From Candidatus Omnitrophota bacterium (GTDB lineage Bacteria > Omnitrophota > Gorgyraeia > Tantalellales > Tantalellaceae), in assembly GCA_024277375.1 (NCBI GenBank), contig JAJRVD010000027.1:19063-83062 (forward strand): 64,000 nucleotides of DNA. Reading direction: 5' to 3'. The notes under the pieces were generated by a model that saw only the letters and a program-made list of their open reading frames with translations, was not told the DNA's origin and did no database searches. The position numbers and the translations under genes are program-made. Positions 10,014-29,623 of this stretch are shown in pieces (position 1 is the stretch's first letter; every line of letters begins with the position of its first letter).

Positions 10014-10088
10014 TTTTAGCTTGAAATGGGGACCATATATTGTATAATAGGTAGCTCAATCAAGCACATTAAAAGGCGGGAGTTGATC

Positions 10089-10325
10089 ATGAAACCTAGA
10101 AAGAATTTTAGAAGTCGTCCCAAAAAGAATGGGGCAAAGAAAAGACAGAAAGTTTTAAGCCAAAAGAGAAGATTGGTCGCGGCAGGTGAGGACAAAGACA
10201 AAGTGGAAAAGCTGACACCAGTTGAGACCAGAAATCACCTTAAGGTAGTCGCTAAAAAGAAATCCGTAAAACCCGCGGTAAAGAAAAAGGCGAAGGCGCC
10301 TGCTAAAACTAAGGCCAAAGCGTAA
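10089..10325 (+). CDS. Small lysine/alanine-rich basic protein (histone H1/Hc1-like composition)
   Basis: MKPRKNFRSRPKKNGAKKRQ ... KKKSVKPAVKKKAKAPAKTKAKA. GGCGGGAG lies 8 nt upstream of the ATG at 10089. This is a low-complexity call only. Confidence 0.35.
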   Translation: MKPRKNFRSRPKKNGAKKRQKVLSQKRRLVAAGEDKDKVEKLTPVETRNHLKVVAKKKSVKPAVKKKAKAPAKTKAKA

Positions 10326-10352
10326 ATGGGAGGGGTATATTGCAATGTGCCC

Positions 10353-12245
10353 CTATAGAAATCTATTGTAAAAAACAAGGCTTCTTTTAGCTATCTTTAT
10401 CCAGCTGAATTCATCTTTAGCTAATTTAAATCCGTTTTTGGCGACCTTGTTTCGCAAAGCAGTATTCCGATTAAAGACCTTGTAAGCTCCTGCAAGGTCT
10501 TTTTTATTGGCAGGATTTACTATGAGACAGTTTTGTTTGTTCTTAAGGTATTTTGTTATTCCCGCGCGTTCGCTCGCTATCAGGGGGGTCCCGCACGCCA
10601 TCGCTTCCGCTGCCGTCATGCCGAAAGGTTCGAATTTTGAGGGAAGTACAAAGAAATTCGCCCTGCGGTAATAGATGGGCATAAGCTCATCTTTAATGTG
10701 GTGGGCAAAAAACACTCTGCTTTTTATATGAGTTTTGTTGATTATTGCCATAAGGTTTTTTCTTAGTCTTTTCTCTTCGGGGGTGGGGTTCTTGGACCCT
10801 CCGCCGATTACCAGAAAAAGATCCTTTTCTTTTGTTACAATTTGAGCGAAAGCGTTTAACAGGTAGTCGAGACCTTTGTTGGTAGCGAATCTACCTACCC
10901 AGAATATATAATTTTGAGGTACATCTATCTTTTTCTCTTTTTCCCCTTTTTTGAGGGGGCGAAAAAATGACGTATTTACGCCCGCGGGCAGTACAGCATA
11001 ATTCTTCTTATTGTAATTGTAAAACCGCTTGGAGTGTTTTATCATATCTGTCGATGTCATTACCAGGCCCCTGGTTTTTTTGTAAACGATCTTCTCTATT
11101 TTTATACGCTTTTTGAAATTGTAAAGTTTTTCCATCTTGATCGGATCGCCGCCCATGTGTTCTTTTTTCCAGGCACCCAAAGAGTGGAAAGTATGAAAAA
11201 AGCAGGTTCCCAGACGTTCAGTAAGTGTCATCGCTACGTATCCGGCGTCCCAGTAATGAGAGTGATATATGTTGTATTTCAGGTTCTCCTTTTTGATGAA
11301 TTTCTGCATGTTATCTACGAACTCATCCAAATAGGGGAGAAGTCTCTCTTTCGCGATAAATTTTGTTCCTCCACACGGTATCCTGATGATACGAACATCT
11401 TTTGTGACGCGCTCAACCGCTTTTTTCCCTTGAAATTTACGCGTATAGATATCTACTTTTATACCTTTTTCGGCTAGGGCTTTGGAGAGTTCAAGGACAT
11501 ATGTTACTTGCCCGCCGGTATCTGTTTTGCCAAGAATTGGTTTGGGGTCGACATAGCCATGGACAGTAAGCATGGCTATGCTTTTGATTTTTCCCGCGTG
11601 TTTTTTTAACTCAATTATTGAATAATTCGCATCAAGGATGATATCCGCGAGTTTATTATGTTTTGAAATTATTCTGTGTTCGATGGCTAGAATATGTTCG
11701 TCAAATTTATCTATTTTGTCACGTTTTCTGGCCATACGAGCTTCCAGGGTTTCTTTATGCGTGCGCGCGAGGAATATTTTTTTATCTATGTTCTTAAGAA
11801 GAGAAGTGAAGGTTCCTTCTACGATCAGGACCTTAGTGGTTTTACATTTTAGGGTCTCCCTGTCGATCTTATTCTTCTCGAAATCGACAAGAGGTTTGTT
11901 GATCTCGGTCGTTTTAAGATTTTTAAAACGCCTGATATGGCCATTTATCGAGGTGAGGTTTACCTCGCTCGTTCCCACGATTGAGATATCCTTTCGCCGC
12001 AGCTTATAATTGGTCTTTGGCGGATGCTTAAAGTAATCGTCCTGATGGAGTATCAGCGTTTTTATCTTTTTTTTCTCCAAGAGAGCCTTTAGCTCGTATG
12101 CGATCTCAGATTTACCCGATCCGGATTCGCCTCCTATGCCAATGACGTACTTGTCAGATGGGGATATCTCCGGCGAGATCGCTTTAGCTATTTTTCTCGC
12201 CGCGTCGGTATGGTGGGGTTTTATTAAGAGCTTATCGCCTATCAT
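10353..12245 (-). CDS. Fusion protein: N-terminal uridine-kinase/PRK-like P-loop domain plus C-terminal GT4 glycosyltransferase (sucrose-phosphate-synthase-like)
   Basis: The N-terminus carries Walker A VIGIGGESGSGKSEIA and LILHQDDYF, as in uridine kinase/phosphoribulokinase. The C-terminal 420 aa carry GT4/SPS signatures: TGGQVTYVLELSKALAEKG and EPFGMTAAEAMACGTPLIASERAG (the EX7E motif). Confidence 0.75.
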   Translation of the reverse strand: MIGDKLLIKPHHTDAARKIAKAISPEISPSDKYVIGIGGESGSGKSEIAYELKALLEKKKIKTLILHQDDYFKHPPKTNYKLRRKDISIVGTSEVNLTSINGHIRRFKNLKTTEINKPLVDFEKNKIDRETLKCKTTKVLIVEGTFTSLLKNIDKKIFLARTHKETLEARMARKRDKIDKFDEHILAIEHRIISKHNKLADIILDANYSIIELKKHAGKIKSIAMLTVHGYVDPKPILGKTDTGGQVTYVLELSKALAEKGIKVDIYTRKFQGKKAVERVTKDVRIIRIPCGGTKFIAKERLLPYLDEFVDNMQKFIKKENLKYNIYHSHYWDAGYVAMTLTERLGTCFFHTFHSLGAWKKEHMGGDPIKMEKLYNFKKRIKIEKIVYKKTRGLVMTSTDMIKHSKRFYNYNKKNYAVLPAGVNTSFFRPLKKGEKEKKIDVPQNYIFWVGRFATNKGLDYLLNAFAQIVTKEKDLFLVIGGGSKNPTPEEKRLRKNLMAIINKTHIKSRVFFAHHIKDELMPIYYRRANFFVLPSKFEPFGMTAAEAMACGTPLIASERAGITKYLKNKQNCLIVNPANKKDLAGAYKVFNRNTALRNKVAKNGFKLAKDEFSWIKIAKRSLVFYNRFL

Positions 12246-12410: not shown

Positions 12411-14861
12411 GTGAGAAAAACTGAAAAAGAAAAGATTATAGAAGACCTTAAAAGTGATTTTTTGCGTAATCGCAAATACTCGCTTGCCAAAGATGTTTAT
12501 ACCTCCACTGATTACGATAATTTTAAGTCATTGGCTATGACGATACGTGATCGCCTGATCGAGAGATGGATACTGACCCAACAGAGGTATCATGACGAGA
12601 ACAGTAAAAGAGTATATTATCTTTCCCTGGAGTTTCTTCCCGGTCGATTTTTATCTAACAATATGATCAATTTGGATATTCTCGAAGAATGCAAGAGCGC
12701 CGTTAGTGAAATTGGATTAAATCTGGAAGACTTATGCGAACAGGAAGTAGACCCCGGGCTTGGCAATGGCGGGCTTGGCAGGCTAGCGGCTTGTTTTCTC
12801 GACTCGATGGCTACGCTTGGTATCCCAGCGACAGGTTACGGGATCCGGTATGATTATGGAATATTTAAACAAAAAATTGAAAAAGGATTTCAGGTAGAAG
12901 TTCCGGAAGAATGGCTTCGCCTGGGCAACCCATGGGAATTTGAAATGCCGGAGGTGACGCTTAAGATCCGTCTTTACGGTAAAACCATTAAACGTACGGA
13001 CAAAAATGGTAAGTTATGTGTGGATTGGGTGGATACCAGTGACATATTGGCAATGCCTTATGATACCCCGATCGCCGGATACAGGAACGGTGTGGTCAAT
13101 AACCTGAGACTTTGGTCAGCGAGAAGTACTGAAGAATTCGATCTTGATTATTTTCATGATGGAGACTATATAAAAGCATGTGAAGACAAGATAGTTACTG
13201 AAAATATCTCGCGAGTACTCTATCCGAGCGATAATGTGTACAAGGGCCTTGAATTGCGTCTTAAACAGGAATATTTTTTCACCTCCGCGTCAATACAGGA
13301 TATTATTCGTCGTTTCAAGATGCACAATAACGACTTTAGCGCTTTCCCTGAAAAAACAGCGATCCATCTCAATGACACGCATCCGGCTGTAGCGATAATA
13401 GAGTTGATGCGTATTCTTTTGGACGAAGAAGAATTAGATTGGGATATGGCCTGGGGTATTACGACCGGAACATTCGCTTACACCAACCACACGATCCTCC
13501 CCGAGGCCTTAGAGGCCTGGCCGGTATCGCTCTTTGGTAAACTATTGCCCAGGCATCTTGAGTTGATCTATGAAATAAATATGAGGTTTCTTAAGGACGT
13601 AGCCAAACATTTTCCGCACGATCAGGATAGGCTTAAACGTATGTCGTTAATAGAAGAAGGACCAAATAAAAAGTTGAGAATGAGTCACCTATGTATCGTA
13701 GGAAGTCATTCGGTGAATGGAGTTTCAAAGCTTCATACGGAATTATTGAAGACGACTCTTTTTAAAGATTTTTACGAGTTTTGTCCGGAGAAGTTCAATT
13801 CGAAGACGAACGGTATTACACAAAGACGGTGGCTTAAAAAAGCAAATTCTTCTTTAGCTCAGTTAATAACCACCAAGATCGGTGATGAGTGGACCGGAGA
13901 TCTTACACAATTAAAAAAATTAATTCCATTGTCATCCGATCGGCTTTTTAAGAAAAAATGGAGTCAGATCAAAAGGGATAACAAAATAAAGTTTGCCGAG
14001 TACGTAAAGAACGGAACGGGTGTTATTATCGATCCTGATTCTATTTTTGATGTGCAGGTAAAAAGAGTGCATGAATACAAAAGACAAGTTCTTTTCGCGT
14101 TCTATCTGATAGCGCGCTATCTCAGGATAAAACATAATCCAAAAAAAAACGTAGTTCCAAGAACGGCTATTTTTGCCGGGAAGGCCGCCCCGGGATACGC
14201 GAGAGCGAAGCTGATAATAAAATTCATCAATAATATCGCGGATGTTATTAATAAAGATCCGGAGATAAATGATAAGTTGAAAGTTGTTTTTCTGGAAAAC
14301 TATTCTGTGTCCATGGCAGAGAGGATATTTCCGGCAAGTGATCTGTCGGAACAGATATCAACCGCCGGGAAAGAAGCCTCGGGTACCGGAAATATGAAGT
14401 TCATGCTTAATGGCGCGCTTACTATAGGGACATGGGACGGCGCGAATATAGAGATCGCCGAGGAAGTTGGCCTCGATAATATTTTTATTTTTGGACTAAA
14501 AGCGGATAAGATCGCTCAGATCAAGGCAACAGGGTATAATCCGCATGAGTACGTCAAGAAAAACCCGCTTCTGAATGAGTCTCTTTCTCTTATTAAGGAA
14601 GACTTTTTCTCGCAGTTTGAACCCGGGATATTTAAACCTTTGTGCGATTCACTTATCTGGCATGACGAATACATGATCTTTGCCGACTTTGAGGATTATG
14701 TCGCGACACAAGATAAAGTTTCAAAGGCATATCGTGATCAGGAAAAATGGACAGAAAGATCTATAATGAACACCGCTAATTCCGGAAGGTTCTCCAGTGA
14801 CAGGACAGTTGCTGAGTATGCCGAAGACATCTGGGGAGTGGATCATAACGGAAAAAAATGA
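12411..14861 (+). CDS. glgP: Glycogen/alpha-glucan phosphorylase
   Basis: The pyridoxal-phosphate site EASGTGNMKFMLNGALTIGTWDGANIE is present. At 816 aa the length fits. The overall GT35 pattern is present (LGNGGLGRLAACFLDS). GTG start. Confidence 0.9.
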   Translation: MRKTEKEKIIEDLKSDFLRNRKYSLAKDVYTSTDYDNFKSLAMTIRDRLIERWILTQQRYHDENSKRVYYLSLEFLPGRFLSNNMINLDILEECKSAVSEIGLNLEDLCEQEVDPGLGNGGLGRLAACFLDSMATLGIPATGYGIRYDYGIFKQKIEKGFQVEVPEEWLRLGNPWEFEMPEVTLKIRLYGKTIKRTDKNGKLCVDWVDTSDILAMPYDTPIAGYRNGVVNNLRLWSARSTEEFDLDYFHDGDYIKACEDKIVTENISRVLYPSDNVYKGLELRLKQEYFFTSASIQDIIRRFKMHNNDFSAFPEKTAIHLNDTHPAVAIIELMRILLDEEELDWDMAWGITTGTFAYTNHTILPEALEAWPVSLFGKLLPRHLELIYEINMRFLKDVAKHFPHDQDRLKRMSLIEEGPNKKLRMSHLCIVGSHSVNGVSKLHTELLKTTLFKDFYEFCPEKFNSKTNGITQRRWLKKANSSLAQLITTKIGDEWTGDLTQLKKLIPLSSDRLFKKKWSQIKRDNKIKFAEYVKNGTGVIIDPDSIFDVQVKRVHEYKRQVLFAFYLIARYLRIKHNPKKNVVPRTAIFAGKAAPGYARAKLIIKFINNIADVINKDPEINDKLKVVFLENYSVSMAERIFPASDLSEQISTAGKEASGTGNMKFMLNGALTIGTWDGANIEIAEEVGLDNIFIFGLKADKIAQIKATGYNPHEYVKKNPLLNESLSLIKEDFFSQFEPGIFKPLCDSLIWHDEYMIFADFEDYVATQDKVSKAYRDQEKWTERSIMNTANSGRFSSDRTVAEYAEDIWGVDHNGKK

Positions 14862-16879
14862 AGAAATATTTGTTGCACGACGATAATGGTAAACTAGAGA
14901 CCCATATAGATTTCAAAGGGAGTCTTAACGATCAGCAGTATGAAGTTGTAACCGCCGCGGAAGGCCCATGTCTTGTTCTCGCCGGCGCGGGAAGCGGTAA
15001 GACCCGAACTCTCATATATCGCCTGGCATATCTTTTGGAACGTGGAATCCCCCCGGGTAATATTTTGCTTATGACCTTTACTAATAAGGCAGCGAGAGAG
15101 ATGCGCGAGCGCACTGAAATGCTTTTAAAGTACAGGCCCAAAGGGTTATGGAGCGGGACATTCCATCATGTGGGGAATAGATCTTTACGCGCGTACGCTC
15201 CCGAAGTTGGTTACGAACGAGACTTTGGTATACTTGACCAGCATGATTCCCGTGAGATTATTAAGTCATGTGTAAAAAAAATGCGTATTAGTCCGGGAAA
15301 AGAAAAGTTTCCTAAGCCGTCGGTGATACAGGCAGTAATAAGTCTCGCGACAAATACCCAAAGAATCACTAAAGAAGTCTTGGAGGATAGATTCCCGTAT
15401 CTATTGAAATTCGCGCCACAGATAAGCGCGATAAAAGATCTCTATGAAAAAAAGAAAGTTTCATCGGGGAACATGGATTATGACGATCTTCTTTCAAAAT
15501 GGAAATGGCTTCTGGAGAACGTAACTGAGGTAAGAAAAAGATATTCTGAGCAGTTTCGGTACATAATGGTAGATGAATATCAGGATACGAACTTTCTTCA
15601 AGCGGACATAATAAATATCCTTAGCGGTCACCACTGTAATTTATTGGCGGTAGGAGATGACGCCCAATCTATTTATTCATTTCGCGGTGCCCGAGTAGAG
15701 AATATACTACAGTTCCCAAAAAAGTTTAAGAGCGCCAAGGTCTTTAAACTGGAGATCAACTATCGTTCAACTCCCGAAATACTGGACTTGGCGAATGATT
15801 CTCTTTTAAATAATGAGAACCAGTTTGAAAAACAGCTTAAAGCGGTAAACCCGTCTATAGATAAGCCCGCGCTGGTCGAAGTAAGAGATCCTTATGCTCA
15901 GGCGAAATTCATCGCGCAGAGGGTAAAAGAAATGCGTGAAGAGGGTATTGAGATGAAAGATATCGCTGTTCTTTTCAGGGCGCATTATCAGTCAGCCGAG
16001 CTTGAAATGGAGCTTGTTAAGAGAGGAATGCCATATATTGTCCGAGGAGGAATACGCTTTTTTGAACAGGCTCATATCAAGGATGTATTGGCTTATTTGA
16101 AAATAGTCATTAATCCTATTGATGAAGTAGCCTGGATCCGGGCTCTTGTTCTGTGTCCTGGTATCGGACCGGGATATGCGGAGAAGATATATTCCGCTTT
16201 TTGCGGATCGGGCACTGATATTGCAAGATTTCTGAAAAGTGGTTTCGTGAATAATTTGCCCAAAAAAGCGCAGGATGGATACGGGCGATTTCAGAAGATA
16301 ATGCGCGCTATAATTTCTGAAGATGTCAACGGTGATACCGGGAGCATGATAGCAGCCGTATTGGACGCGGGGTATGAAACGCATCTTCAGGTAGCTTTCG
16401 AGAACGCGAAAGACCGCGTAGACGATATACATGAACTGATAAATTTTTCTCATGAATATGAGACATGCGCGGATTTTTTAAGTGATATAACGCTCAGGGA
16501 AGGATTTAGGGGAGAGATTGTTCAGGACGGGCAAGACGAAGAATAACAGCTTGTGCTTTCAACCATACATCAGGCAAAAGGTTTAGAGTGGAAGGCTGTT
16601 TTTGTGATAGGTCTTTGTGAAGGGCAGTTCCCGCATCCCAAGGCTTATGCGGAATCGGCGGAGATGGAAGAAGAGAGGCGTCTTTTTTATGTAGCGGCAA
16701 CCAGAGCGGAAGAATTTTTATACCTTATTCATCCCCGTACGCGTTATGACTATCAGCAGGGGACGGTAATAGCTCGCCAGAGCAGATTTCTTGAAGAATT
16801 GGATCCGGATGATTATGAGGTGTGGGAAGTGGGGTCGAATTCGTTCCCAAGCAACGAAGAAAGGACCATTGAGCTGTAA
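14858..16879 (+). CDS. uvrD: UvrD/PcrA-type ATP-dependent DNA helicase, interrupted by one in-frame TAA (16544-16546); possible pseudogene or readthrough
   Basis: Walker A LAGAGSGKTRTLIYRLAYLL and motif II MVDEYQDTN are present. The C-terminal piece (16553-16879) carries motif VI, LSTIHQAKGLEWKAVFVIGL...RRLFYVAATRAEEFLYL. Both parts are in the same frame and are separated only by TAA, CAG, CTT. The track splits the gene into 562-aa and 108-aa ORFs. Confidence 0.8.
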
Positions 16880-18597: not shown

Positions 18598-18693
18598 TAC
18601 GGATGATTTTTTTTGCTCGGTTATTTCAAACATTTTAAAAGCATATGAGGTGCAGGCGATGAAACTGTCATTGAGAAGAGGAGCTAAGAGCAA

Positions 18694-18733
18694 GGGGGAC
18701 AGCCTCTTTTTGGCCAAAAAGAGGCTGTCCCCC
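18694..18733. repeat. Palindromic repeat family A copy (gggggacagcctctttttggccaaaaagaggctgtccccc)
   Basis: A perfect hairpin. It lies inside the first 35 codons of the six-frame ORF 18650, so the real start of the giant gene is probably downstream at 18755. Confidence 0.65.
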
Positions 18734-18754
18734 TTGCTACGTTGTTCGCTCGTG

Positions 18755-21700
18755 ATGACGGGGAAGGGTATTGCCTCGCTGGTCACTTTGATAGCTTTTG
18801 TATTAAATATTTTAGGCGCGGAAGTTATTAGTATAAAAGCATATGCCGCTATTTCCCCTGAAATAGCTTCTACCAATCCCGCTGAGTATAATTTTCTGAA
18901 TGTCGATTCTTTTACATTACCCAAATACCTTGGAACCATAAAAGATTTGTGGAAGTCTGCCTCCGGACGAGACACGGTTATTCATATCCAGGACGCTCAT
19001 TGTAACTATGCCGCGCAGGATACGATAGCTAAGATGATAGAACGTATCGATTCGGAGTACGATATAGACGTGATAAATCTTGAAGGCGGCGCGGAGGATT
19101 ATGACCTGTCTTTGTTTACCGATATTGAGGATAAGGGCGTAAGACAAAAAGTAGTCGACTATTTTATGAAGCTTGGCATGGTCTCCGGTGCCGAAAGCTT
19201 TGTTCTTAATAATCAGGATAAAGCAAAGTTATGGGGCGTCGAAGACGTGGATCTTTATTTTGACAACCTTAGCGCCTACCGGAATTCGCTGGAGTACAAG
19301 GAAGAAGTTGACGGGTATCTTAAAATGCTCAGCCGTTTGCTGAATGAACTTAAAATAAACGTTTATTCGAACGAACTTTTGGAGTTTGATCTTAAATATT
19401 CCGCTTACAAGGCGGGTAATCTGGCTTTCAGAGATTATGTGATCTATATTCGTGATAAGGCCGCGAAATGTGCTATCGACATGGAGGAGTTTGAGAATAT
19501 TGCGTTATTGTCTGAGTCTCTTGAACTTGAGGGCAAAATTGATTTCAAAAAGGCCAATCGCGAGAGGGATATGCTCATAGAAGAGCTCCGGCGCATGGTC
19601 TCGAAAAACGAGCTTGAAAACCTGGTGCTCAAGACCTTACAGTTCAAGAAAAAGATAATTTCCCGGAAAGACTATTATACGTATCTTTTTGAAAAAGCGC
19701 GGCTTGTGAACATCGGCTTGGATGGGTTCGGCGAACTCAGGAAATACACTGACTATATCTCAAAGTATCAGACCGTTGATAGATCAAAGATATTAGAAGA
19801 AATGTCTATTATTGAGGATGCGATCAAGGATGTTCTATGCGTAAAAGATAAAGATCGTACGCTTGTCAGGTTGTCCAAGAATTTCGCGCTCCTAAAGAAC
19901 ATATTCAACGTCTCGCTCACAAAAGACGACTATGTGTATTACAAAACCAACGAACCCGCGTTCGCGGTGAAAAACTATATTTCATTCATTAAGGCTAACG
20001 ACTCATCATTGCGTGGAGCTGTGCCTTTCTCGCCGTTGCGAGGAGCCGACCTATCCTCTGTCATTGCGAGCCCGCCGAAGGCGGGAGAAGCAATCTCTGA
20101 AAACATCTATAATCTCGACCGCCACCGCGAACAAATATCCCGTTTTTACGAAGATGGCATCAAGCGTGACGATGCATTCTTGCGCAACCTCAGGTTTCAA
20201 CGTAAGCAGGGAGTAGGAAGCAGGGAGCAGGGTGTCGTAGGAGAGGCCTCTAGCCGTGAACAAAAAACGACAATTTTAGTTACCGGCGGATTTCACACCA
20301 AAAATTTATGCGAGCTGTTTAAAGAGAAAGGTATCTCCTACGTTTCTATCATGCCTAACTTCCGGAATGAGAATGGTTATGAAAGCCCGTATTTTAACCT
20401 TCTCGCTGGTAAGAAAAATGATGTAGCCGCGGCGCTTACAAGTGATATATCTTCGTTGGCGTTATATTCTGATTTATTGCAGAACGGTCTAAACAATGGA
20501 GATTTTACCTCGAATGTTAAAGCGGTTAGAAGGTTGTGGGTAAGTCTGGTTGCCGCTCAGATCAGGAAAAACGGGAGAAATGTCATATTCGGAGATATTA
20601 ATGGTCGTTATAGACGCTATTCATTCAACTCCGAAGATGGTGATCCTGTAGCGGGACTTACAATAAACGGAAAACAGGTATACGCAAGGAATTTTGGTGG
20701 GGAAAGATCCCTTCAGGCTGAAGCGAAGGCATTATATGAGGAAATTTCCAGAGATATTGTATCCTTTGCCGCGGAAAGAGAGGAGATAAAGTCCGCGGTT
20801 GTCAGGTTAAGAGAGATCTTTAGTACTTTTCCCGACGTTGTTATCTCTGAAGTGAGAAATTTCTGGGAAAATGAAAAAGAAAGCACCGGAAATGTTTTCA
20901 GAGCTGTCGAGTTCTTTGATCTGATGCCCGAGATAATGCTTAATGCGAAAGTAGAGCGGTTGAAAGAAGCGGCGTTGAGTTTTGTCGACCGTCAACTGGA
21001 ACATATTTTTGACAGAGAAAACGCGGTGGCCATATATAACGAGATAATATCTACCGACGAAGGTATTCCTCAAGACCTGCTCAAATACGCTTTGTACTAC
21101 AGGAATCTAAAGGAGGGTAAAACTCTTACGGATGAGCAGTTGGCCCTGCATGGCCTCAGCAGCAAAGAGGACTTCCCATATTCCCTCGAGGTCGATCGTG
21201 TCTTAAAACACAAGGATGATAGTAATCCTAAAAAACTTTTGCTTATTTATAATGCTGAACATACCAGTATGGTAGGGATGGGAGACCAGATATCAAATGT
21301 GGTTCCCCTGGTTCAGGCACTTAAGGATAAATATCCCAAGTTGGACATAACCATATATACGGATAAACCCTTTGTGTATGAGGCTCATGACAATGTCCGT
21401 GTATTTAGCATGTCTTCTCCCGGAATAAATGCCGAAGAGGTTTTTGATATGGCGATCGATTATTCGGACAGTAAGAGTCGAGAGGAATATCCGGATAAAT
21501 ATTTAGTTCAAGAAGCGCAGATCTCTATTGTAGGGGATTTCAATAATTTAACAGTTAAGGCTAAGGGGTTACCGCCTTTGGGCATAAAAGTTCGTAATCG
21601 AAGTAATGCATATTCATTAAGCTTACGGTTATGTGCCGAATTGAGACTTCCTGTCAGGATAGGAACAGAACAACCTCAGACAAGTTCGATAGTTCTTGGC

Positions 21701-24700
21701 CCGGGTAGTGAGGAAGCCGATATGTGGTGGGAGGAAAATGTAGTATTGAAAAACACAGAAAAGAGAAAAGTCGTATTTTTGAATCCGTATGGAGGGGAAT
21801 GGAAGGAAAAGGGATACATTTATAACGATAGGCTAGTCAAGGATATAGAAGCCCTTCTTGAAGACGGAAACTATATTGTTATATCTCCAAATGACACTCG
21901 TTGGGGTACTCGTGAAAAAATCGAAGAAATGCTGAAACTATTAGATGCAGCAAAACAAAAATACATTACTATTTCAAAGGGTCCGTCAGAGGCTGGAAAT
22001 TTAATAAAACATTGGTTATATAGGGCTGATCATATTGTCACGGTTGAGGGTGGTACCGCGCATTTGGCCTACAATTTGGGTAAAACATTTACGCTTGTCT
22101 GGAAAAGAGGCGCGGGATTACTACATGATATCCCGCCTATGTGCGATCTTGGTCAGGAGTTAATCCCGATAGGAGGTAAACCGCAGGATATAGTGGATGC
22201 TGTTAAAAGAGCTTTTGAGAGTGACGATGAAGGCTCAAAAGTTACTAGTATCGGAACCGGAATTTTGCGAAAAACAAAAACAGTACTATCCGGTCTTTTG
22301 GTCTTTCTTGCCGGATCTTCAGCTTTGCAAATACTTTTGGCGGGCGATCTCTTCGCGGCGACGCCGGATGCGATTATGCAGGCTACTGCGACGCCGTGGG
22401 GCTGGATTGCAGTAGTGGTGGTTGCGGGTTTTATTGTGTATAGGTATTTTGCGATGTCTGCAGAAAGAATGGGTACAAAAGTTATTCCATTGGGAATAGC
22501 AGGTTTGATCTTTATGGGGGTTCAATGTAGCTATGCAGCCGCGTTGTCTCCACGTGAGGGTAAAACAAAAATATTAGTTTCATCTGCTGAGTTTCAGGAA
22601 AAACAGCAGCAGATCCGAGAAATGATAAAAGGGCTTGCGGATAGCGAAGAACATCTTTCAGGGAAAGAAAGGGAGTTGCTTGAAGGAATATTAAGTCTTA
22701 TCGAGGATGGAGATATCAAGATTAAATATGATCCTGAAAGGAATTATGCGTATGCCGATAAAGAGAATAAAGAAGTCGGGTTGCCTGAGAGTAGCTTCAT
22801 GGACAGGTATCGATTGGCGAGTGCCATAATTCATGAATTATTACATCAGCTATGCGCGAAACGTAATATCGATTTTTCAGATAAGATTAAAACGAGTGGG
22901 TTTAATGATTCAAATGATTATTGGCAATGGCTTGATCCCGGGGAGGAAGGATGGGTGCTCCGAAATACCATGATGATCATGAATCAAATCCCGATGGAAG
23001 CATTAGGCCTGAAACTGCTACTTGCGGAAGTCCCAAATCAAGAATCTTTCAATACTCAGATATTGACATATGATAACGAACCCATTACGAATGTTGACAG
23101 AATTATAGAATTGGCAAAAGATCCGGAAATGGTTATGGAAAAAAGAAGATTTCTGGTGAAGTTGTTACCTCTCATAAGCCTTAATATCGCGGAAAAAGTC
23201 GGAAACACCGGGATCATAAGGCCAGTTGACGCGGAAACCTCAAAAGAGGCAGAAGAGGCTTTGCTGGCTTTGAAAAAGTATTATGAGAGCGAACAAAATA
23301 TATTAGCAACGAAACATAAAATCCTGAAAAACAATAAGAAGAGACCCAAGCTGGTTAATGGGGCGGTCCGTCTGTCCTGGAAAGATCCCTCCAAGCTAAC
23401 ATCAGAAGATAAAGATCTCGTTGAATGGTGGTCAAATGTTAAATTGCTGGAAACGATAGAGCTATCAAGAAGGATGCTTAACGAGAGCAAGGTAAGTGTA
23501 GATAAAAAGTTAGATGAGTTTACTGTCCTAATAGTGGATGGGATCAAGCGTGAAATGAAGGTATCTGATTTGAGAATAGGGATGGCACGTATGTTGTATG
23601 GGAGTGAAGAAAAACTCGTAAAAGATGTCTTGAGGGAGTTGAAGCCTTGGGAAATCGACCTGATCGTGTATTACCAAAAAGAGATAAGGATCAAGCTAAA
23701 ACAGACTATTTCATATTATGAGGGAAGAGAGTTTGAGTTTAATAAGAACAACTTAACGGGAGCAATTAGCACGATAATGATGTCGCTTTTGCGGGATGTC
23801 TCAAAAACCGAGTATAACAGCATTTATGATCATAATAATCGTGGCCTTAAATGGGATGACCCGGGACGGTGGCATGGGCTCACGTTTGATGATAGATGGT
23901 ATGAGATCGGCAACCTGAATGGTTTATCATATAATTACTATAACGAACATCGTAAAAATGAAACAGAGGAAGAAAAGTACAAAGCTGATAATCCAAACAG
24001 GCCGAAAAATTTCGTTAACAATAACGCGACAAAAGGGTTTCGCGTGGATATGAGGGAGACATATTTATTCATGCGCTTCTATCCTGAAGAACTAGCTAAG
24101 ATCGTTAAGAAGGACAGAGGTGTAGCCGCAAAAGTAGAATTATTGGAAGAATATATGGGCAAATTGAAGCGGAATGTTAATAAAACAGCAAAATGGAGAG
24201 GAGACAGACAAAAAAAGAAAGAGAGTGAAAAGACATCAGACGGTATCAATACACTTAAAGGAATAATGGCTTTCGCGATAGCCCTGCCGCTTGTGCAGAT
24301 GCTTTTGGCGGGCGATCTCTTCGCGGCGACACCGGGGGTGCTTGTGCCCTCGATATTTAACTCGTTTAATGTTATAGGGTTCTTGTTAACGGTGGTGTGC
24401 TTAGGTTTAGCCGGGCTTATTCTTTATTATGATACCAATGATGCGGACGAATGGGATGATATCCCAGAGAGTGAGTCGATAAGGGCCTGGCAGGTTCTCT
24501 TAGGAGGGCGTGAGTGGGAAAAGATGGGGAAAGAATTCACTGACCGCTTAGCGATCTTGACCCCACAGGAGAGTGAGAACCGAACACTTCTTTTTGAGTT
24601 TTTGGAGAGATTCGGAAGAAAAGATTTACTCGCCCATATCAAGAGAAAACCGGATGAATTTTTGCCTGTTCTTGAGCATTTGAGGGGTAGTGAATTCATT

Positions 24701-27700
24701 TCAGGATACTTTGGAGAATTACTATATAGGGTAGACCGGTCGGGGGAGAAAGAACAGGAATTGCTGGATCTTGACTTGAAGACAGAACCATTGAAGGTAT
24801 GGGAATTGATAGATATTCTCATTGAAGTTGATTCATTTCAGCAAGATCTATACGAGTTCCTGACAAAAGATACCGCATATTCGGCAATACCCGGACAACA
24901 GTATTTGCCGCTTAATGTGAATGTCGTAAATGTTGTAGGGCAGATGGTTGAAGAAACGAGAAGTGCAAATCGGGTGAATATAAGGGGCAATCTTATCGCG
25001 ATAAGCGGGCAATTCCCCGGATATTATGCCGCTATTTGCGATTCTATTCTGAGGAATCCTGCCAGGATTCTAGAATTTGACATTGCCCCGGAAGTTGTAG
25101 AAAGAAATCTAAAATTTCTTCAACCTGAAAATTCCAAAGATCATATAACCTCTTTTGAGGGGTTTGTGGCGTTTCTGAAGAGGGAAAGTAAAGTTACCGA
25201 TAATATGGGGAAATCACCCATTGGTAAAGGTGTTCTGGATATATCGAAACGTGTTTTTAAATTCTTCGGCAAGGAAATAACTCCGGTTGTTGAAAATACA
25301 TGGATCCCGGTATTTGAAGAACTTGTGATGTTTTTGGTTTTGGCGGGCGGATATTTGGGCGGGTTATTCGTTCTTTCCGCACTGCCGTATATCCTCACCA
25401 GAATTATATTTACCGCATGGCACCTGAAAAACGAAAGTGGCACCTGGTTGCAGAAAATGCTTGTGCCGGGCATCGCGTCTGTGTTTGCGCTTATACCGGT
25501 GATGGCGGTTTTGGTATTGCCGGCGGTGTCCGCAGAGTTAATGTTAGCGGCGGCATTGGCTTTGGGAACCGGAACACATGTGCTAGGAAACCGGAGAGTA
25601 CACAAAAAGCGGATGGATGCATTTAAGCGTATCTTCGAAGAGAAAAAAGAAACTCTCGTTAAACAGGTAAGTGATGAAGAATTATTGGATGAATTTATCG
25701 GATATCTAGATGTGAATGTCAAAGAACTATTCGGGATCGGATTGCTTCTTGAGATAAGAGAGTTCTCTAAGTCTATACCTTTATCCAGAGATGAACAAAC
25801 TCGTCGCGGAAGACAAAGGGCGATTCTTTTAATGGCCGGGTTGAATGTCAGCGAAACGGAGTTGTACAAAGAAAATCAAAGAAAGATCGAGGAAGAACGC
25901 GTAATAGCGGAAGATCTAAATGGTATGGAAAATATTCATGATCTGATAGAGGGAAAGTTTGTTACGGTAAAACAGCTGAAAAGGGCCATAGAACTGTCCG
26001 CTGGGAACATAACCTCAGCGCTTGAAACATTAAATAAACTGAAAGACGTTATTAAAAAACACGGTATCGATGAGCTGTTTGAATTAGCCGATTTGGAGCG
26101 CGTATCCAATAATGTTCCGTGGAATTGTTTTGAATGGGTTGATTATGATTCCGCGCGAGATTTATTGGATCAATACGGCATCAAGCCATTTCTCAAAATG
26201 AGACGTTTGGGAGTAGGAGAATATTCATATCGTTCCATAGATTCTTATTCTCTGACGCTTCGGGGCATATTTAATTTGGTTAGGGACATGAGAGATGGGG
26301 ATATCAGTGAGAGATATGGGATAAGTGTTACCGGTTCTAATGTCGAGAAAATAACCATCAACATCATCAAAGAAAAGATATCGCTAAAAGGGCCGTCCAG
26401 TTTGCCTGTTAACATGTTCCCGGAAGATGAGATCGAATTTTTAGAAAAAAGTCATGAGGATACATACCGGCGTGAGAGCGAAAAAAACATGGATCGTTAT
26501 CTGAACAGGGAAAAACATAAAAAAGCGATATTGTCGTATATGCTGCTTTGCGAACGTTACGGCCCGGATAACATTAGGCGTCTTGTGCGGGATAACGTGC
26601 TGGAGAAGTGGAGCGAAAAAGTAGAGTCAATTAAAGACCAGTTGAGAGATCTAAAATCCGTGATCGACTTGCCGAGTGTCGGGATAGAACCGTTTGTTGA
26701 GTTTTCCGGAGGGAATGAAGACGGGCTTTGGCCGCTGACATTTATTGAAAAAGAAAAATGGGCACAATTTCTTACGTCGATACTAATTCAAAGAGGAGAT
26801 GTCACCGCGAAAAATAAAAGGCTCAGCGATCTTTATATCAACAATATGCTCGCTTCGGTAGGGAACAATATTGTTCCGAATGTGTCTATGATCAATGTTA
26901 TCGCGGAACTCCTTACACATAACGCGCAAAGCGGGGTACATCCCGTAGAGAGTTTTTTGCTTTCCGCGCTTGGTGAAGCGGGATTAAACAAGGGTTCAAT
27001 AGAAAAAATCTTAGAATATCTGGCGAAGAACAAAAAAAGTGAGATAAAAAGGTCGCAAATTATACGGGCCTTAGCCGGTATATATTGGGGATTTAAGTAT
27101 GAACGCTTTTCGGCGGGAACAATAGATACGCGAATGATAAACGCTATTATCGAGACGGAAGACACTCGCCGATTAAGCGCGGCGCTGAATTTTATCCCCG
27201 CGTTAATTGATCTTCTCGAGTCGGGAATACTTGCCAAAGAAGAGATCGAAACCGGGACAAGATCGGGAAATATAGTTGACAAAATCGGAGGGTTATTGAA
27301 AAGTAAGATTGAAGAAACATTTAGTATAAAGATCAGTGATACCGATTTGGAGGTACAGGCGGCTCTTTCCGACACGTATTTTCTGGCGGATTTATTCAGT
27401 TTTCGAAGAAAGTATAAGGAAGAAGACGAAAACGCCTATAAGATATTCCTGGGATTGGTCAAAGCGTATTTTGAGAACGGCAGTAAAGGTGTGAGAGAAT
27501 ATAAAAACTCAAATGAGCTTGTCAATGTACAAATCCCTGAAAGGATAAAGGAGAAAGGATTTGAACAACTTTCGCGCCTCAGGACGTTCGCGCGGTCGGG
27601 GGAAGGTGAAGAGATGAGTGTATTTGACCGACTATTTAAAACAACATTAAGAAATTATGATGAGCATTCTAAGGAAATGAAATTTGATCCCGGTTCGATC

Positions 27701-29623
27701 AGCGCGGCGTCAACGGAAGAAATAAGTAACTTTGAGAAGAGTATAGAGGAGTTTCGCGGGGGAATAAGTAACATTGAATTAAAGAAAGCTGTAGAGCATG
27801 CTATAGCGTCGGGAGATACTAATACGTTAAAGAAGTTAGAAAATCTATCACGTCCGGATAAAAAGTCACGCGGATATGCTATCGGATCGATCGAAAAATT
27901 GTACGCGATGCGGCAAGAAGGTAGCGTGGTCGAAGCGGCTATGATAATCAAGAGCCTGCGCGGTATCAAAGATATTTCCGTCGGGGAACAGGAAAAAGAG
28001 CTCAGGACATTATATTCCTCCAGCAAAGAAAAGATTGAGGAGCTTATTCCGACATTGAGGTATATCCGCGGCAAAATGCAGGCTAAAAATAAACCCGTAG
28101 CGATAATTATAGGAGGAATGATTGGTTTATTGACAGGATTGGAAAAATTCTCAACAGGAAAGAGCGATATATTATCGGAGAAGAAAATCACGGCGGAAAT
28201 AAGTTTTGACCTGAAAGAGATCTTAAAAATAGGGCGTTACGGCGCCAGCGGCGAAGGTAATTGCCAGCATAGCAATAGTCCGGGTGAGAGCAACCATAGT
28301 TTAATGAGTTTTATAGGGGACGCTCATGAACTTATTATTCTGTTTAGAGATGATGACGGTATTGTCGTAGGGCAGGCGCTGATGCACGGAGTATACCTGG
28401 AGACCGGAGATTTTGTTTATATGAAAGAGGATGTTTACACTAATGATAATTCCCTGAAAGCGTTGATGGAAACCGCGGCAAGGAGAATGGGTAAGGCAAT
28501 AGCTAATTTTTACGGAATTAAAGTTTTAGATCCAGGGGCAGTCGAGAATAAAAAGATTTTTAATAACATAAAAATACCGCCAAGTAAGGTATTTCGTTAT
28601 TTAGACTCATTGGGCGGAGAAGTGTACACGTTTATGGAATCCATGCCGCTTGAAAAACCTTTATTGGCAGGGGTAGTTGAACCTATACACATTCGGGGCG
28701 GACGGGAAAGTAGCTATAGATTGTCTCCCATCGGCGGGATGTTGAGTGCGGATCAGCTGATCGCCCGTGCACAGGACCCTAAGATTTCTGCCGCGGAATT
28801 GGTCGGAAATCTGAAGCTGACCGGATTAGATCAAGCACATGTGGTTCAGGAGGCTTTGGCTGATCCGGAATATGCCGACAAGCTCAAAGAATTTAACAGG
28901 TTGCTTGCCAGGGCTCTGGGGGGAACCGAACTTGTCGAAAAGGCGAAAAGGGAGGAGAGGGAAGAAGCGATCGAAGATCGGCAGGCGGTGACGGTGGAGG
29001 TATTTGGGGAGGTTAACAGGAAAACCGATACGGTGAGAGCGGTTATAGGTGTTCCCAAAGGCATGCCGCAGAAAGTACTGCAGAAAATGCTTCGTGAAGT
29101 TAACAGAGGCCTTGCCAAAAATGGGTTTGGAGAGAGAAACGATACGCATCAGGTCATAGTGTTTGAAATGGATGCTGACAATAAAGATTTAACGGAAAGT
29201 AACCAGGCCGCGGCAGTAGAAAAAGCCCGGAAAGATCTATCCAAAAAAGGAATGATCGTTCTTTTTTCGCCCGAGACGGACAAGTTGCCGCTTGCGGAAC
29301 TCACGGTTGAAAAGTACAAGGATCAAGAAAATATTACTATTATCAGAGATGCTTATTCAGATTCCAAGCCGCAAGAAAAACAGTTCCTTGATGTTGATGT
29401 AAGGGCGGCACTCGCTAGGCATATAGCTTTTTATTATAACGGCAGTGATCAAGCATCCGCGATAAGCGCGATAAATGCTTTGATGAGGCAGATATCCGAT
29501 GAGCATAAGGACATATCGGATATAAACGAACTATTGGCCATGGTTGTTAGAATAAGGCCGATCGATTATGGGGAAATAACGCAGTGGGCCGAAGCGCAGA
29601 TAGCGACGGCAACGTCGCTGTAA
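18755..29623 (+). CDS. Giant (about 3620 aa) polytopic membrane multi-domain protein with an embedded GT9 (heptosyltransferase-like) domain
   Basis: A 10.9-kb open frame. The ATG at 18755 is the first start downstream of the family-A palindrome. An N-terminal TM helix is present. Region nt 18920-20450 carries IHIQDAHCNYAAQ and ILVTGGFHT, a weak resemblance to the TraB/GumN/ChaN fold. Region nt 21230-22110 matches the GT9 pattern: KKLLLIYNAEHTSMVGMGDQISNVVPLVQALKDKYPKLDITIYTD and ADHIVTVEGGTAHLAYNLGKTFTLVW. An HExxH motif (IIHELLHQL) is near nt 22835. There are two TM bundles, each beginning with the identical motif LLAGDLFAATP (nt 22339 and 24301). A further 4-helix TM bundle is near nt 25300-25600. 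Confidence 0.8.
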   Translation: MTGKGIASLVTLIAFVLNILGAEVISIKAYAAISPEIASTNPAEYNFLNVDSFTLPKYLGTIKDLWKSASGRDTVIHIQDAHCNYAAQDTIAKMIERIDSEYDIDVINLEGGAEDYDLSLFTDIEDKGVRQKVVDYFMKLGMVSGAESFVLNNQDKAKLWGVEDVDLYFDNLSAYRNSLEYKEEVDGYLKMLSRLLNELKINVYSNELLEFDLKYSAYKAGNLAFRDYVIYIRDKAAKCAIDMEEFENIALLSESLELEGKIDFKKANRERDMLIEELRRMVSKNELENLVLKTLQFKKKIISRKDYYTYLFEKARLVNIGLDGFGELRKYTDYISKYQTVDRSKILEEMSIIEDAIKDVLCVKDKDRTLVRLSKNFALLKNIFNVSLTKDDYVYYKTNEPAFAVKNYISFIKANDSSLRGAVPFSPLRGADLSSVIASPPKAGEAISENIYNLDRHREQISRFYEDGIKRDDAFLRNLRFQRKQGVGSREQGVVGEASSREQKTTILVTGGFHTKNLCELFKEKGISYVSIMPNFRNENGYESPYFNLLAGKKNDVAAALTSDISSLALYSDLLQNGLNNGDFTSNVKAVRRLWVSLVAAQIRKNGRNVIFGDINGRYRRYSFNSEDGDPVAGLTINGKQVYARNFGGERSLQAEAKALYEEISRDIVSFAAEREEIKSAVVRLREIFSTFPDVVISEVRNFWENEKESTGNVFRAVEFFDLMPEIMLNAKVERLKEAALSFVDRQLEHIFDRENAVAIYNEIISTDEGIPQDLLKYALYYRNLKEGKTLTDEQLALHGLSSKEDFPYSLEVDRVLKHKDDSNPKKLLLIYNAEHTSMVGMGDQISNVVPLVQALKDKYPKLDITIYTDKPFVYEAHDNVRVFSMSSPGINAEEVFDMAIDYSDSKSREEYPDKYLVQEAQISIVGDFNNLTVKAKGLPPLGIKVRNRSNAYSLSLRLCAELRLPVRIGTEQPQTSSIVLGPGSEEADMWWEENVVLKNTEKRKVVFLNPYGGEWKEKGYIYNDRLVKDIEALLEDGNYIVISPNDTRWGTREKIEEMLKLLDAAKQKYITISKGPSEAGNLIKHWLYRADHIVTVEGGTAHLAYNLGKTFTLVWKRGAGLLHDIPPMCDLGQELIPIGGKPQDIVDAVKRAFESDDEGSKVTSIGTGILRKTKTVLSGLLVFLAGSSALQILLAGDLFAATPDAIMQATATPWGWIAVVVVAGFIVYRYFAMSAERMGTKVIPLGIAGLIFMGVQCSYAAALSPREGKTKILVSSAEFQEKQQQIREMIKGLADSEEHLSGKERELLEGILSLIEDGDIKIKYDPERNYAYADKENKEVGLPESSFMDRYRLASAIIHELLHQLCAKRNIDFSDKIKTSGFNDSNDYWQWLDPGEEGWVLRNTMMIMNQIPMEALGLKLLLAEVPNQESFNTQILTYDNEPITNVDRIIELAKDPEMVMEKRRFLVKLLPLISLNIAEKVGNTGIIRPVDAETSKEAEEALLALKKYYESEQNILATKHKILKNNKKRPKLVNGAVRLSWKDPSKLTSEDKDLVEWWSNVKLLETIELSRRMLNESKVSVDKKLDEFTVLIVDGIKREMKVSDLRIGMARMLYGSEEKLVKDVLRELKPWEIDLIVYYQKEIRIKLKQTISYYEGREFEFNKNNLTGAISTIMMSLLRDVSKTEYNSIYDHNNRGLKWDDPGRWHGLTFDDRWYEIGNLNGLSYNYYNEHRKNETEEEKYKADNPNRPKNFVNNNATKGFRVDMRETYLFMRFYPEELAKIVKKDRGVAAKVELLEEYMGKLKRNVNKTAKWRGDRQKKKESEKTSDGINTLKGIMAFAIALPLVQMLLAGDLFAATPGVLVPSIFNSFNVIGFLLTVVCLGLAGLILYYDTNDADEWDDIPESESIRAWQVLLGGREWEKMGKEFTDRLAILTPQESENRTLLFEFLERFGRKDLLAHIKRKPDEFLPVLEHLRGSEFISGYFGELLYRVDRSGEKEQELLDLDLKTEPLKVWELIDILIEVDSFQQDLYEFLTKDTAYSAIPGQQYLPLNVNVVNVVGQMVEETRSANRVNIRGNLIAISGQFPGYYAAICDSILRNPARILEFDIAPEVVERNLKFLQPENSKDHITSFEGFVAFLKRESKVTDNMGKSPIGKGVLDISKRVFKFFGKEITPVVENTWIPVFEELVMFLVLAGGYLGGLFVLSALPYILTRIIFTAWHLKNESGTWLQKMLVPGIASVFALIPVMAVLVLPAVSAELMLAAALALGTGTHVLGNRRVHKKRMDAFKRIFEEKKETLVKQVSDEELLDEFIGYLDVNVKELFGIGLLLEIREFSKSIPLSRDEQTRRGRQRAILLMAGLNVSETELYKENQRKIEEERVIAEDLNGMENIHDLIEGKFVTVKQLKRAIELSAGNITSALETLNKLKDVIKKHGIDELFELADLERVSNNVPWNCFEWVDYDSARDLLDQYGIKPFLKMRRLGVGEYSYRSIDSYSLTLRGIFNLVRDMRDGDISERYGISVTGSNVEKITINIIKEKISLKGPSSLPVNMFPEDEIEFLEKSHEDTYRRESEKNMDRYLNREKHKKAILSYMLLCERYGPDNIRRLVRDNVLEKWSEKVESIKDQLRDLKSVIDLPSVGIEPFVEFSGGNEDGLWPLTFIEKEKWAQFLTSILIQRGDVTAKNKRLSDLYINNMLASVGNNIVPNVSMINVIAELLTHNAQSGVHPVESFLLSALGEAGLNKGSIEKILEYLAKNKKSEIKRSQIIRALAGIYWGFKYERFSAGTIDTRMINAIIETEDTRRLSAALNFIPALIDLLESGILAKEEIETGTRSGNIVDKIGGLLKSKIEETFSIKISDTDLEVQAALSDTYFLADLFSFRRKYKEEDENAYKIFLGLVKAYFENGSKGVREYKNSNELVNVQIPERIKEKGFEQLSRLRTFARSGEGEEMSVFDRLFKTTLRNYDEHSKEMKFDPGSISAASTEEISNFEKSIEEFRGGISNIELKKAVEHAIASGDTNTLKKLENLSRPDKKSRGYAIGSIEKLYAMRQEGSVVEAAMIIKSLRGIKDISVGEQEKELRTLYSSSKEKIEELIPTLRYIRGKMQAKNKPVAIIIGGMIGLLTGLEKFSTGKSDILSEKKITAEISFDLKEILKIGRYGASGEGNCQHSNSPGESNHSLMSFIGDAHELIILFRDDDGIVVGQALMHGVYLETGDFVYMKEDVYTNDNSLKALMETAARRMGKAIANFYGIKVLDPGAVENKKIFNNIKIPPSKVFRYLDSLGGEVYTFMESMPLEKPLLAGVVEPIHIRGGRESSYRLSPIGGMLSADQLIARAQDPKISAAELVGNLKLTGLDQAHVVQEALADPEYADKLKEFNRLLARALGGTELVEKAKREEREEAIEDRQAVTVEVFGEVNRKTDTVRAVIGVPKGMPQKVLQKMLREVNRGLAKNGFGERNDTHQVIVFEMDADNKDLTESNQAAAVEKARKDLSKKGMIVLFSPETDKLPLAELTVEKYKDQENITIIRDAYSDSKPQEKQFLDVDVRAALARHIAFYYNGSDQASAISAINALMRQISDEHKDISDINELLAMVVRIRPIDYGEITQWAEAQIATATSL

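Follow-up and report, generated by a model that had tools for sequence, protein, structure and literature searches.

In a 64,000-nucleotide (nt) stretch of contig JAJRVD010000027.1 from a Candidatus Omnitrophota bacterium (hereafter, the window), one open reading frame (ORF) encodes a membrane-anchored protein of 3,654 amino acids (aa), in which the domain at residues ~855-1190 is a divergent glycosyltransferase (GT) module of the GT9 clan with a GT-B fold. The first-pass annotation of this DNA had recognized a GT9 heptosyltransferase-like domain within a giant protein from two blocks of sequence, and both blocks are present in frame in the same ORF: the N-terminal block LLLIYNAEHTSMVGMGDQISNVVPLVQALKDKYPKLDITIYTD at residues 863-905 (nt 21236-21364) and the C-terminal block ADHIVTVEGGTAHLAYNLGKTFTLVW at residues 1126-1151 (nt 22025-22102). 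The domain extends somewhat beyond the span originally assigned to it (21230-22110; Table 1), with an N-terminal Rossmann half (residues ~861-1015), a C-terminal half (~1040-1160), and a C-terminal helix. All residue numbers count from the GTG codon that opens the ORF; those of the database protein P0002 are lower by 3.

A GT9-type GT-B domain inside this very large multi-module protein is supported by a structural model, by Foldseek, and by profile comparisons. An AF2 model built with an alignment of 45 full-length domain copies, 25-42% identical to the window domain (alignment A1), reached a pLDDT of 90.8 and a pTM of 0.89 and consists of two Rossmann-like halves; only this model was used, the single-sequence model (pLDDT 37.5) being unusable. 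The top five Foldseek matches in the PDB were all GT9 structures (3TOV, WaaF 1PSW, and WaaC 2H1H/2H1F; E 4e-10 to 3e-7), while other GT-B families began at E ~1e-5. In the fold comparison, the lipopolysaccharide (LPS) enzymes were followed by the chloroplast NDH subunit PnsB1 (14.6) and the protein heptosyltransferase TibC (11.2), both known to be GT9-like, with all other folds from 8.6; because the score drops to 8.6 beyond the GT9-like proteins, the fold match is GT9-specific and not generic to GT-B enzymes. A viral fold library returned generic RfaF and GT-B matches only.

Profile searches led to the same group of enzymes. Among 177,635 PDB sequences, the A1 profile found E. coli WaaF as its best match (E 7.3e-5), with TVEGGlMHlAYnLGkP of the family paired with TNDSGLMHVAAALNRP. 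A hidden Markov model (HMM) built from 149 family domains favored all four E. coli GT9 paralogues (WaaF, 34.1 bits; WaaU, 12.6; WaaC, 11.5; WaaQ, 6.9) over other GT families (GT30 WaaA, 5.1 bits; GT8, ≤0.6; GT4, not reported), and hhalign gave a probability of 96.6% for WaaF against ≤10.6% for the controls. A chance resemblance of motifs was ruled out by these fold and profile statistics.

The curated family models weigh against this assignment, as neither PF01075 nor NCBIfam matches the window sequence. PF01075 (Glyco_transf_9), against which the first-pass annotation had proposed to check the domain, gave no match up to E = 1, whether the query was the entire protein or just the excised segment. 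NCBIfam gave no usable match, only a 34-residue, 14-bit hit of a GT30 Kdo-transferase model, and phmmer with the segment against PDB sequences returned noise only. Homologues at 30-34% identity nevertheless approach or exceed the PF01075 gathering score of 22 (P0006, 34.5 bits; P0047, 22.8; P0011, 19.7), five of the 63 mid-size family members have a weak PF01075 match, and IMG names P0033 and P0043 "ADP-heptose:LPS heptosyltransferase." By the criterion that the first-pass annotation had set for itself, the lack of a PF01075 match would have refuted the assignment, but it proved to be a problem of sensitivity, and membership rests on the fold, the profile searches, and the bridging homologues.

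Conservation of catalytic and donor-binding residues

In WaaC (HepI), Asp13 is the catalytic base, Lys192 touches the pyrophosphate and the heptose, Glu222 binds the ribose, Asp261 and His266 bind heptose hydroxyls, and the backbone of Thr262/Gly263 binds the alpha-phosphate (bioRxiv 10.1101/2021.06.16.448588). We mapped these residues by hhalign against E. coli WaaC and by HMMER alignment to 1PSW and scored conservation over 149 family representatives. A global hhalign alignment to WaaF placed the N-terminal half in the wrong register, and the N-terminal alignment to WaaC was used together with local C-terminal alignments. The hhalign probability of the WaaC N-terminal half was 61%, too unreliable to map the basic residues with which WaaC binds its acceptor Kdo2-lipid A (Arg60, Arg63, Lys98, and Arg120).

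The first-pass annotation had asked whether the ADP-heptose-binding residues are intact. The equivalents of Asp13, Lys192, and His266 are kept (Table 1). In the donor loop, which aligns with TNDSGLMH of WaaF and VDTGLSH of WaaC, Glu and His are each found in 127 of 129 representatives, and Gly is kept too. Within A1, the invariant residues are the G of the G-D loop; the G, K, and G of G-G-x4-K-G; and the E, G, and H of V-E-G-G-x-x-H. Three observations count against the GT9 assignment: (i) the equivalent of WaaC Asp261 is systematically Glu in the family; (ii) the equivalent of Glu222 is not conserved, since the W1085-G1086 motif that precedes it is retained while the residues at +2 to +7 vary (at +4, the window protein has Glu, but Asp or Glu occurs there in only 53 of the 149 representatives); and (iii) no gene of the ADP-heptose pathway turned up in the window or at any of the three family loci inspected. 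As the Glu222 equivalent is variable, the donor may not be ADP-heptose. From these alignments, the catalytic apparatus seems to be intact, Glu systematically replacing Asp, and nucleotide recognition may differ from that of WaaC.

Both departures, like the failure to pass PF01075, would also fit a noncatalytic GT9-fold scaffold for binding or assembly, similar to the chloroplast NDH subunit PnsB1, as would its frequent fusion to HEAT repeats, a type of module that mediates protein interactions. We regard such a scaffold as improbable: the catalytic and donor-binding positions are near-invariant across 149 representatives at 25-45% identity, and the mid-size members are encoded among genes for glycosyltransferases and sugar modification.

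A clade of fused domains and its gene contexts

An exhaustive phmmer search with residues 841-1198 against 1.84 billion cluster representatives (50% identity) recovered 178 proteins at E ≤ 1e-3, 132 of them at E ≤ 1e-10. The clade thus comprises at least 178 clusters, and the region shared among its members is a domain of ~300-335 residues. It was this search that revealed the family; a word-indexed search for homologues, run first with the segment and then with A1, had returned only a 198-aa fragment (P0001), and a single-domain locus search among GTDB genomes found no relative.

The fusion, which the first-pass annotation had treated as an oddity next to standalone GT9 enzymes, turned out to be the norm for the clade. 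Mid-size members (~650-900 aa, mostly ~770 aa) carry C-terminal HEAT repeats in 48 of 63 cases, a GT2 domain in two, and an Anp1 domain in one, and many other members are parts of proteins of 1,300-7,800 aa. In the larger members, the domain is combined with S-adenosylmethionine (SAM) methyltransferase, HAD, SLOG, kinase-like, acetyltransferase-like, or sigma-factor-like parts, and the named ones (P0097, 7,778 aa, and P0007) belong to Omnitrophota. The gene for P0021 is flanked on one side by a GT4 gene and on the other by those encoding GT10, Anp1, GT2, and GT1, and a gene for a sugar epimerase or reductase is found upstream; that for P0020 lies between GT2 and Anp1/GT1 genes; and that for P0154 has epimerase, GT10, and APS kinase genes nearby. 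Judged by its domain partners and neighbors, the clade has the look of a working glycosyltransferase family.

Two further gene contexts were observed. P0004, which is 38% identical and among the three closest relatives, has a hydrophobic N-terminus, HEAT repeats, and the GT9-like domain. Its gene (locus L090; JGI 3300033143, contig Ga0366829_1000295, 8001-11492) adjoins genes encoding proteins of 1,157 and 1,496 aa, the latter HopA1-like, and the same contig holds an intein-containing MCM and TBP, which are archaeal hallmark genes. This context may reflect an exchange of modules between archaea and Omnitrophota. The JGI contigs L001-L004 carry a related gene of 3,200 aa with an N-terminal module 46% identical to that of the window protein (e.g., L001, 170-9772). 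In L001, this gene is followed, after several stops, by only the C-terminal half of a GT9-like domain (9917-10597; annotated as P0001, 198 aa), beyond which lies a gene for an rve transposase. An alternative genetic code that would join the giant ORF to the downstream fragment was rejected because several different stop codons intervene and the rve transposase is adjacent. The arrangement looks like the decayed or rearranged remnant of a P0016-type gene.

Membrane side of the GT9-like domain

Topology was assessed by Kyte-Doolittle hydropathy and flank charges. The first-pass description of the domain as sitting between transmembrane (TM) bundles is loosely true: a cluster (residues 1212-1299) does begin ~20 residues after it, but upstream there is only one anchor (residues 41-63), some 800 residues off.

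We consider that the GT9-like domain probably lies at the cytoplasmic face, in keeping with the following observations: (i) the first hairpin has a +4 flank (RKTKT, directly ahead of its first helix) on the side of the domain, and its loop is acidic and without positive charge; (ii) P0007 consists of a soluble acidic N-terminus, the GT9-like domain, and the same hairpin, in the same pattern as in the window protein (basic flank, TM, acidic loop, TM, basic flank); (iii) fusion partners that need SAM, ATP, or nucleoside triphosphates (NTPs) are common in the family; and (iv) in 82 of the 126 mid-size members, hydrophobic segments are absent altogether. Leloir-type GT-B enzymes require nucleotide sugars, which the periplasm does not contain.

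Other observations point away from the cytoplasm and would favor an exported module, with residues 64-1211 outside. The GT9-like domain would then be an effector-type Leloir glycosyltransferase at work in the periplasm, at the cell surface, or within a prey or host cell whose nucleotide sugar it uses. The segment at residues 41-63 is strongly N-in, with a very basic N-tail and an AxA site, and the module that follows it would be periplasmic according to the homologue P0250, whose GGDEF domain comes after the next TM segment; relatives of this module are sensor-like. Between residues 64 and 1211, no segment exceeds a Kyte-Doolittle value of 1.2, and no confident TM segment was found. A model with all 10 TM segments (N-in, C-in) places the domain outside, and the helix count is consistent with it. 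At least 15 family representatives have a classical signal peptide and no TM segment before the domain, and the catalytic residues are kept in 14 of these 15. Omnitrophota also include predators and epibionts with giant proteins that are predicted to be largely extracellular (bioRxiv 10.1101/2023.11.21.568195). We nevertheless judge export unlikely, given the need for nucleotide sugars, the charge of the hairpin behind the domain (+4 on the domain side, none in the loop), and the occurrence of the same domain and hairpin behind the soluble N-terminus of P0007. Topology predictions for such proteins have been called unreliable (bioRxiv 10.1101/2023.11.21.568195), and P0127, in which a signal-like N-terminus is combined with a cytidylyltransferase-like domain, suggests that such N-termini are poor predictors of location.

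Several GT9-like family members, among them P0127 (2,572 aa), P0018, P0047, P0131, P0148, and P0025, open with textbook signal peptides (e.g., ...SPALALA/PRS), and the cytidylyltransferase-like domain of P0127 should need NTPs. Either the signal-peptide members act in another cell, or signal-like N-termini fail to predict location in this group.

Predicted function

On the residues and topology described above, the module is predicted, in a reading that we hold to be more likely than not, to be an active inverting transferase that would pass a nucleotide-activated sugar to an acceptor near the membrane. The proposed donor is ADP-heptose-like, and the acceptor, held near the membrane, could be a lipid-linked glycan or a protein. 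The reaction would most likely take place at the cytoplasmic face, with the hairpin directly after the domain as the tether.

The first-pass annotation had suggested self-glycosylation of the polypeptide or a machine that couples glycosylation to export through the adjacent helices. The domain is indeed covalently tethered ~20 residues from a membrane hairpin, and the HEAT repeats of its relatives could bind protein substrates. However, neither idea gained positive support: no membrane segment matches a transporter, flippase, GT-C, or polymerase family in Pfam, and the clusters comprise only two to four helices, too few for a channel. The fold is also nearer to the LPS heptosyltransferases than to TibC, and with only two Cys the domain has no TibC-type iron finger. 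The GT9-like domain is C-terminal in P0016 (4,005 aa), which has the same N-terminal module, and near the N-terminus in P0003; this varied position argues for shuffled modules and not for a fixed unit of glycosyltransferase plus channel. We therefore see little prospect for self-glycosylation or coupled export, and the protein does not look like an integrated glycosylation-and-export machine.

O-GlcNAc transferase (GT41) combines an N-terminal TPR helical repeat array with a GT-B catalytic domain. The GT-B domain plus HEAT repeats of 48 of the 63 mid-size members offers an analogy, in which the repeats could present protein acceptors, although these repeats are HEAT and C-terminal in place of TPR and N-terminal, and the catalytic domain is GT9-like and not GT41. 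Extending this analogy, the GT9-like clade might be made up of protein- or prey-directed glycosyltransferases, including a Leloir-type predation effector within a multi-module "Swiss-army" protein, an idea that we regard as speculative and improbable. In the ~770-aa form, the HEAT repeats would present the protein acceptor in the manner of the TPR array; in large Omnitrophota proteins and in the signal-peptide-bearing relatives, the module would be displayed outside or delivered into prey, where nucleotide sugars of the prey would be used to modify envelope or cytosolic targets.

Comparison with known systems

Enzymes of GT9 use ADP-heptose as the donor in an inverting transfer, though some transfer GlcNAc instead. 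With WaaF and WaaC (CAZy GT9, PF01075; 1PSW, 2H1F/2H1H, and 3TOV), the window domain shares the G-D catalytic loop in the N-terminal half, the Lys after the first strand of the C-terminal half, the W-G motif, and the (D/E)-x-G-x-x-H-x-A donor loop. It differs from them in an identity of only 14-17%, which is under the PF01075 threshold, in the Glu in place of Asp261 and the variable ribose-binding position, in a clade-specific G-G-x4-K-G motif and N-x-Y-x-P-x2-R-L-x-A-E-L-G-L-P helix, and in an additional beta-hairpin that the model predicts in the N-terminal half of the domain. Among the loci examined, the clade was not met in an LPS-core operon, and whereas WaaF and WaaC are standalone enzymes of 320-350 aa, the domain is found within a 3,654-aa membrane protein or in HEAT fusions.

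Resemblance to the bacterial autotransporter heptosyltransferases TibC/AAH (BAHT, 4RAP), which are GT9-like and O-heptosylate proteins, is weaker than to the LPS enzymes. The window domain lacks the Cys4 iron-finger motif, no autotransporter gene adjoins its gene, and TibC, unlike the window domain, is a standalone 406-aa enzyme that forms dodecamers.

Giant membrane proteins of Omnitrophota have been described with GT5, GT1, methyltransferase, hydrolase, peptidase, and NUDIX domains between TM helices (bioRxiv 10.1101/2023.11.21.568195), and their domains are often visible by structure prediction only, with unreliable or contradictory topology predictions (bioRxiv 10.1101/2023.11.21.568195; bioRxiv 10.64898/2026.06.07.730766). 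The window protein shares with these "Archaeovorins" (West-Roberts et al., bioRxiv 10.1101/2023.11.21.568195) the Omnitrophota host, the alternation of unannotatable or enzymatic modules (a glycosyltransferase and a putative peptidase) with TM helices, the high divergence of its domains, and the contradictory topology predictions. In contrast, it is 3,654 aa long, against 10-147 kaa, and falls short of the ~7,000-10,000 aa that mark the lower limit of this type; SecA-DEAD, dockerin, and C39 domains were not detected in it (Pfam, up to E = 1); and a GT9-like module is not mentioned alongside the GT5 and GT1 domains reported there (bioRxiv 10.1101/2023.11.21.568195). The window protein is a small relative of the giant-protein phenomenon, and GT modules in such proteins have already been published.

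Organization of the host protein and the window

The host gene is a single uninterrupted ORF of 3,657 codons (18650-29623, plus strand) that opens with GTG at 18650. The ATG at 18659 is the likely start because a GAGG lies 8 nt upstream of it, and translation from there gives the 3,654 aa of P0002, with which the product is identical. About 10 hydrophobic segments fall into four clusters (Table 1). A Pfam scan of the whole protein up to E = 1 had no match anywhere, HEAT repeats included, and PDB sequence searches with three other parts of the protein found no match. Overall, the protein resembles a string of modules, each with its own anchor: an ectodomain of the Tiki/ChaN-like kind, followed by the GT9-like domain, the HExxH module, and further modules.

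Table 1. Positions in the window of the gene, its membrane segments, modules, and key residues
Feature	Residues	Position (nt)	Strand	Evidence
Large multi-module membrane protein gene		18659..29623	+	ORF scan, GAGG, identity to P0002
N-terminal hydrophobic segment	41-63	18770..18838	+	Kyte-Doolittle 2.28, flank charges
N-terminal module, Tiki/ChaN-like	64-700	18839..20749	+	Omnitrophota-wide ectodomain family
GT9-like GT-B domain	~855-1190	21212..22219	+	
Asp879 in G-M-G-D, equivalent to WaaC Asp13 (SMGD)	879	21284..21286	+	hhalign; Asp in 116/120
Lys1054 in P-Y-G-G-x4-K-G-Y (KEKGY), equivalent to WaaC Lys192	1054	21809..21811	+	hhalign; Lys in 141/145
Donor loop E1133-G-G-T-A-H1138, equivalent to WaaC D261-T-G-L-S-H266	1133-1138	22046..22063	+	HMMER, hhalign
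First membrane cluster (hairpin and marginal third segment)	1212-1232 and 1249-1268; 1278-1299	22283..22546	+	Hydropathy
HELLH (HExxH)	1395-1399	22832..22846	+	Read by eye
Second helical hairpin	1872-1889 and 1906-1927	24263..24430	+	Hydropathy
Cluster of ~4 TM helices	2222-2315	25313..25594	+	Hydropathy

The N-terminal hydrophobic segment is a signal anchor or a signal peptide (KAYA/A), preceded by a Lys/Arg-rich tail, and is kept in homologues of the N-terminal module. This module, with the motifs IHIQDAH at residue 111 and VTGGFH at residue 544, has 118 homologues, typically membrane proteins of 900-1,000 aa, and all of the named ones belong to Omnitrophota. A weak PF04187 (ChaN/Tiki) match in one homologue fits the two motifs. 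In P0250, the module is followed by a TM segment and then a GGDEF domain, an order that suggests a periplasmic location for it, and in P0158, it is combined with a CrtO-like acyltransferase membrane domain after the TM segment. With such varied outputs, the Omnitrophota-wide Tiki/ChaN-like module may be a common N-terminal cassette whose ectodomain serves as a sensor or an enzyme in the periplasm.

For the module around HELLH (residues 1300-1871), there was no Pfam or PDB sequence match. The cluster of about four helices is followed by a strongly basic +6 flank (RRVHKKR), from which the C-terminal 1,340 residues are predicted to be cytoplasmic. In the same cluster, motifs resembling those of CPBP/CAAX intramembrane proteases (FEEL..., FTAWH, and HVLGN) can be read by eye, with no Pfam support. 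If these motifs and HELLH are real, the protein could cut itself into separate modules.

The first helix of both TM hairpins ends in LLAGDLFAATP (22334-22366 and 24302-24334, plus strand). The two DNA copies are identical at 32 of 33 positions, 1,968 nt apart, and in frame, and their flanks diverge to the random level. The 30-mer has no further copy in the 64 kb, where chance would give none, and none of the 271 other proteins fetched contains the motif. The identity at synonymous sites suggests that this short tract was converted recently or has a function as nucleotide sequence.

The AccA encoded in the window is 72-77% identical to that of Omnitrophota metagenome-assembled genomes, and the region shows no shift in base composition or skew. 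The neighbors are ordinary chromosomal genes: a GT4/uridine-kinase fusion, glycogen phosphorylase, UvrD, NUDIX, HAD, Era, MgtE, PurH, MnmE, FolE, AccA, MlaEFD, LeuRS, and ComEC. The fusion gene (10353-12245, minus strand) joins a uridine-kinase/phosphoribulokinase-type P-loop domain (residues 33-156) to a GT4 sucrose-phosphate-synthase-like glycosyltransferase (residues 222-627) and adjoins the glycogen phosphorylase gene. The UvrD-type helicase is split on the plus strand into two adjacent ORFs, 14858-16546 (562 aa, covering the N-terminal domain plus a portion of the C-terminal one) and 16553-16879 (108 aa, the end of UvrD_C). The split could reflect a pseudogene, a frameshift or in-frame stop, or an error in sequencing. 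Three plus-strand ORFs at 494-4876 (1,460 aa), 4922-5728 (268 aa), and 5729-6607 (292 aa) have no Pfam match and form a second dark large-protein block.

Implications

The first-pass observation was a good by-eye detection of remote homology, and its main value lies in annotation and in the handle that it gives on topology and function; the understanding of GT9 chemistry and of LPS synthesis is unchanged by it. A GT9-related clade that spans 178 or more clusters (50% identity) is invisible at the curated thresholds of Pfam and NCBIfam and has been left "hypothetical," although it is recognizable by profile or by predicted structure. It is common in large proteins of Omnitrophota and in HEAT fusions within glycan gene clusters. 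For the otherwise dark giant proteins of Omnitrophota, one assignable enzymatic module is gained, with defined residues for mutation (Asp879, Lys1054, Glu1133, and His1138). Since an enzyme that uses nucleotide sugars must sit where nucleotide sugars are, the location of this module could serve to calibrate the contradictory topology predictions for these proteins.

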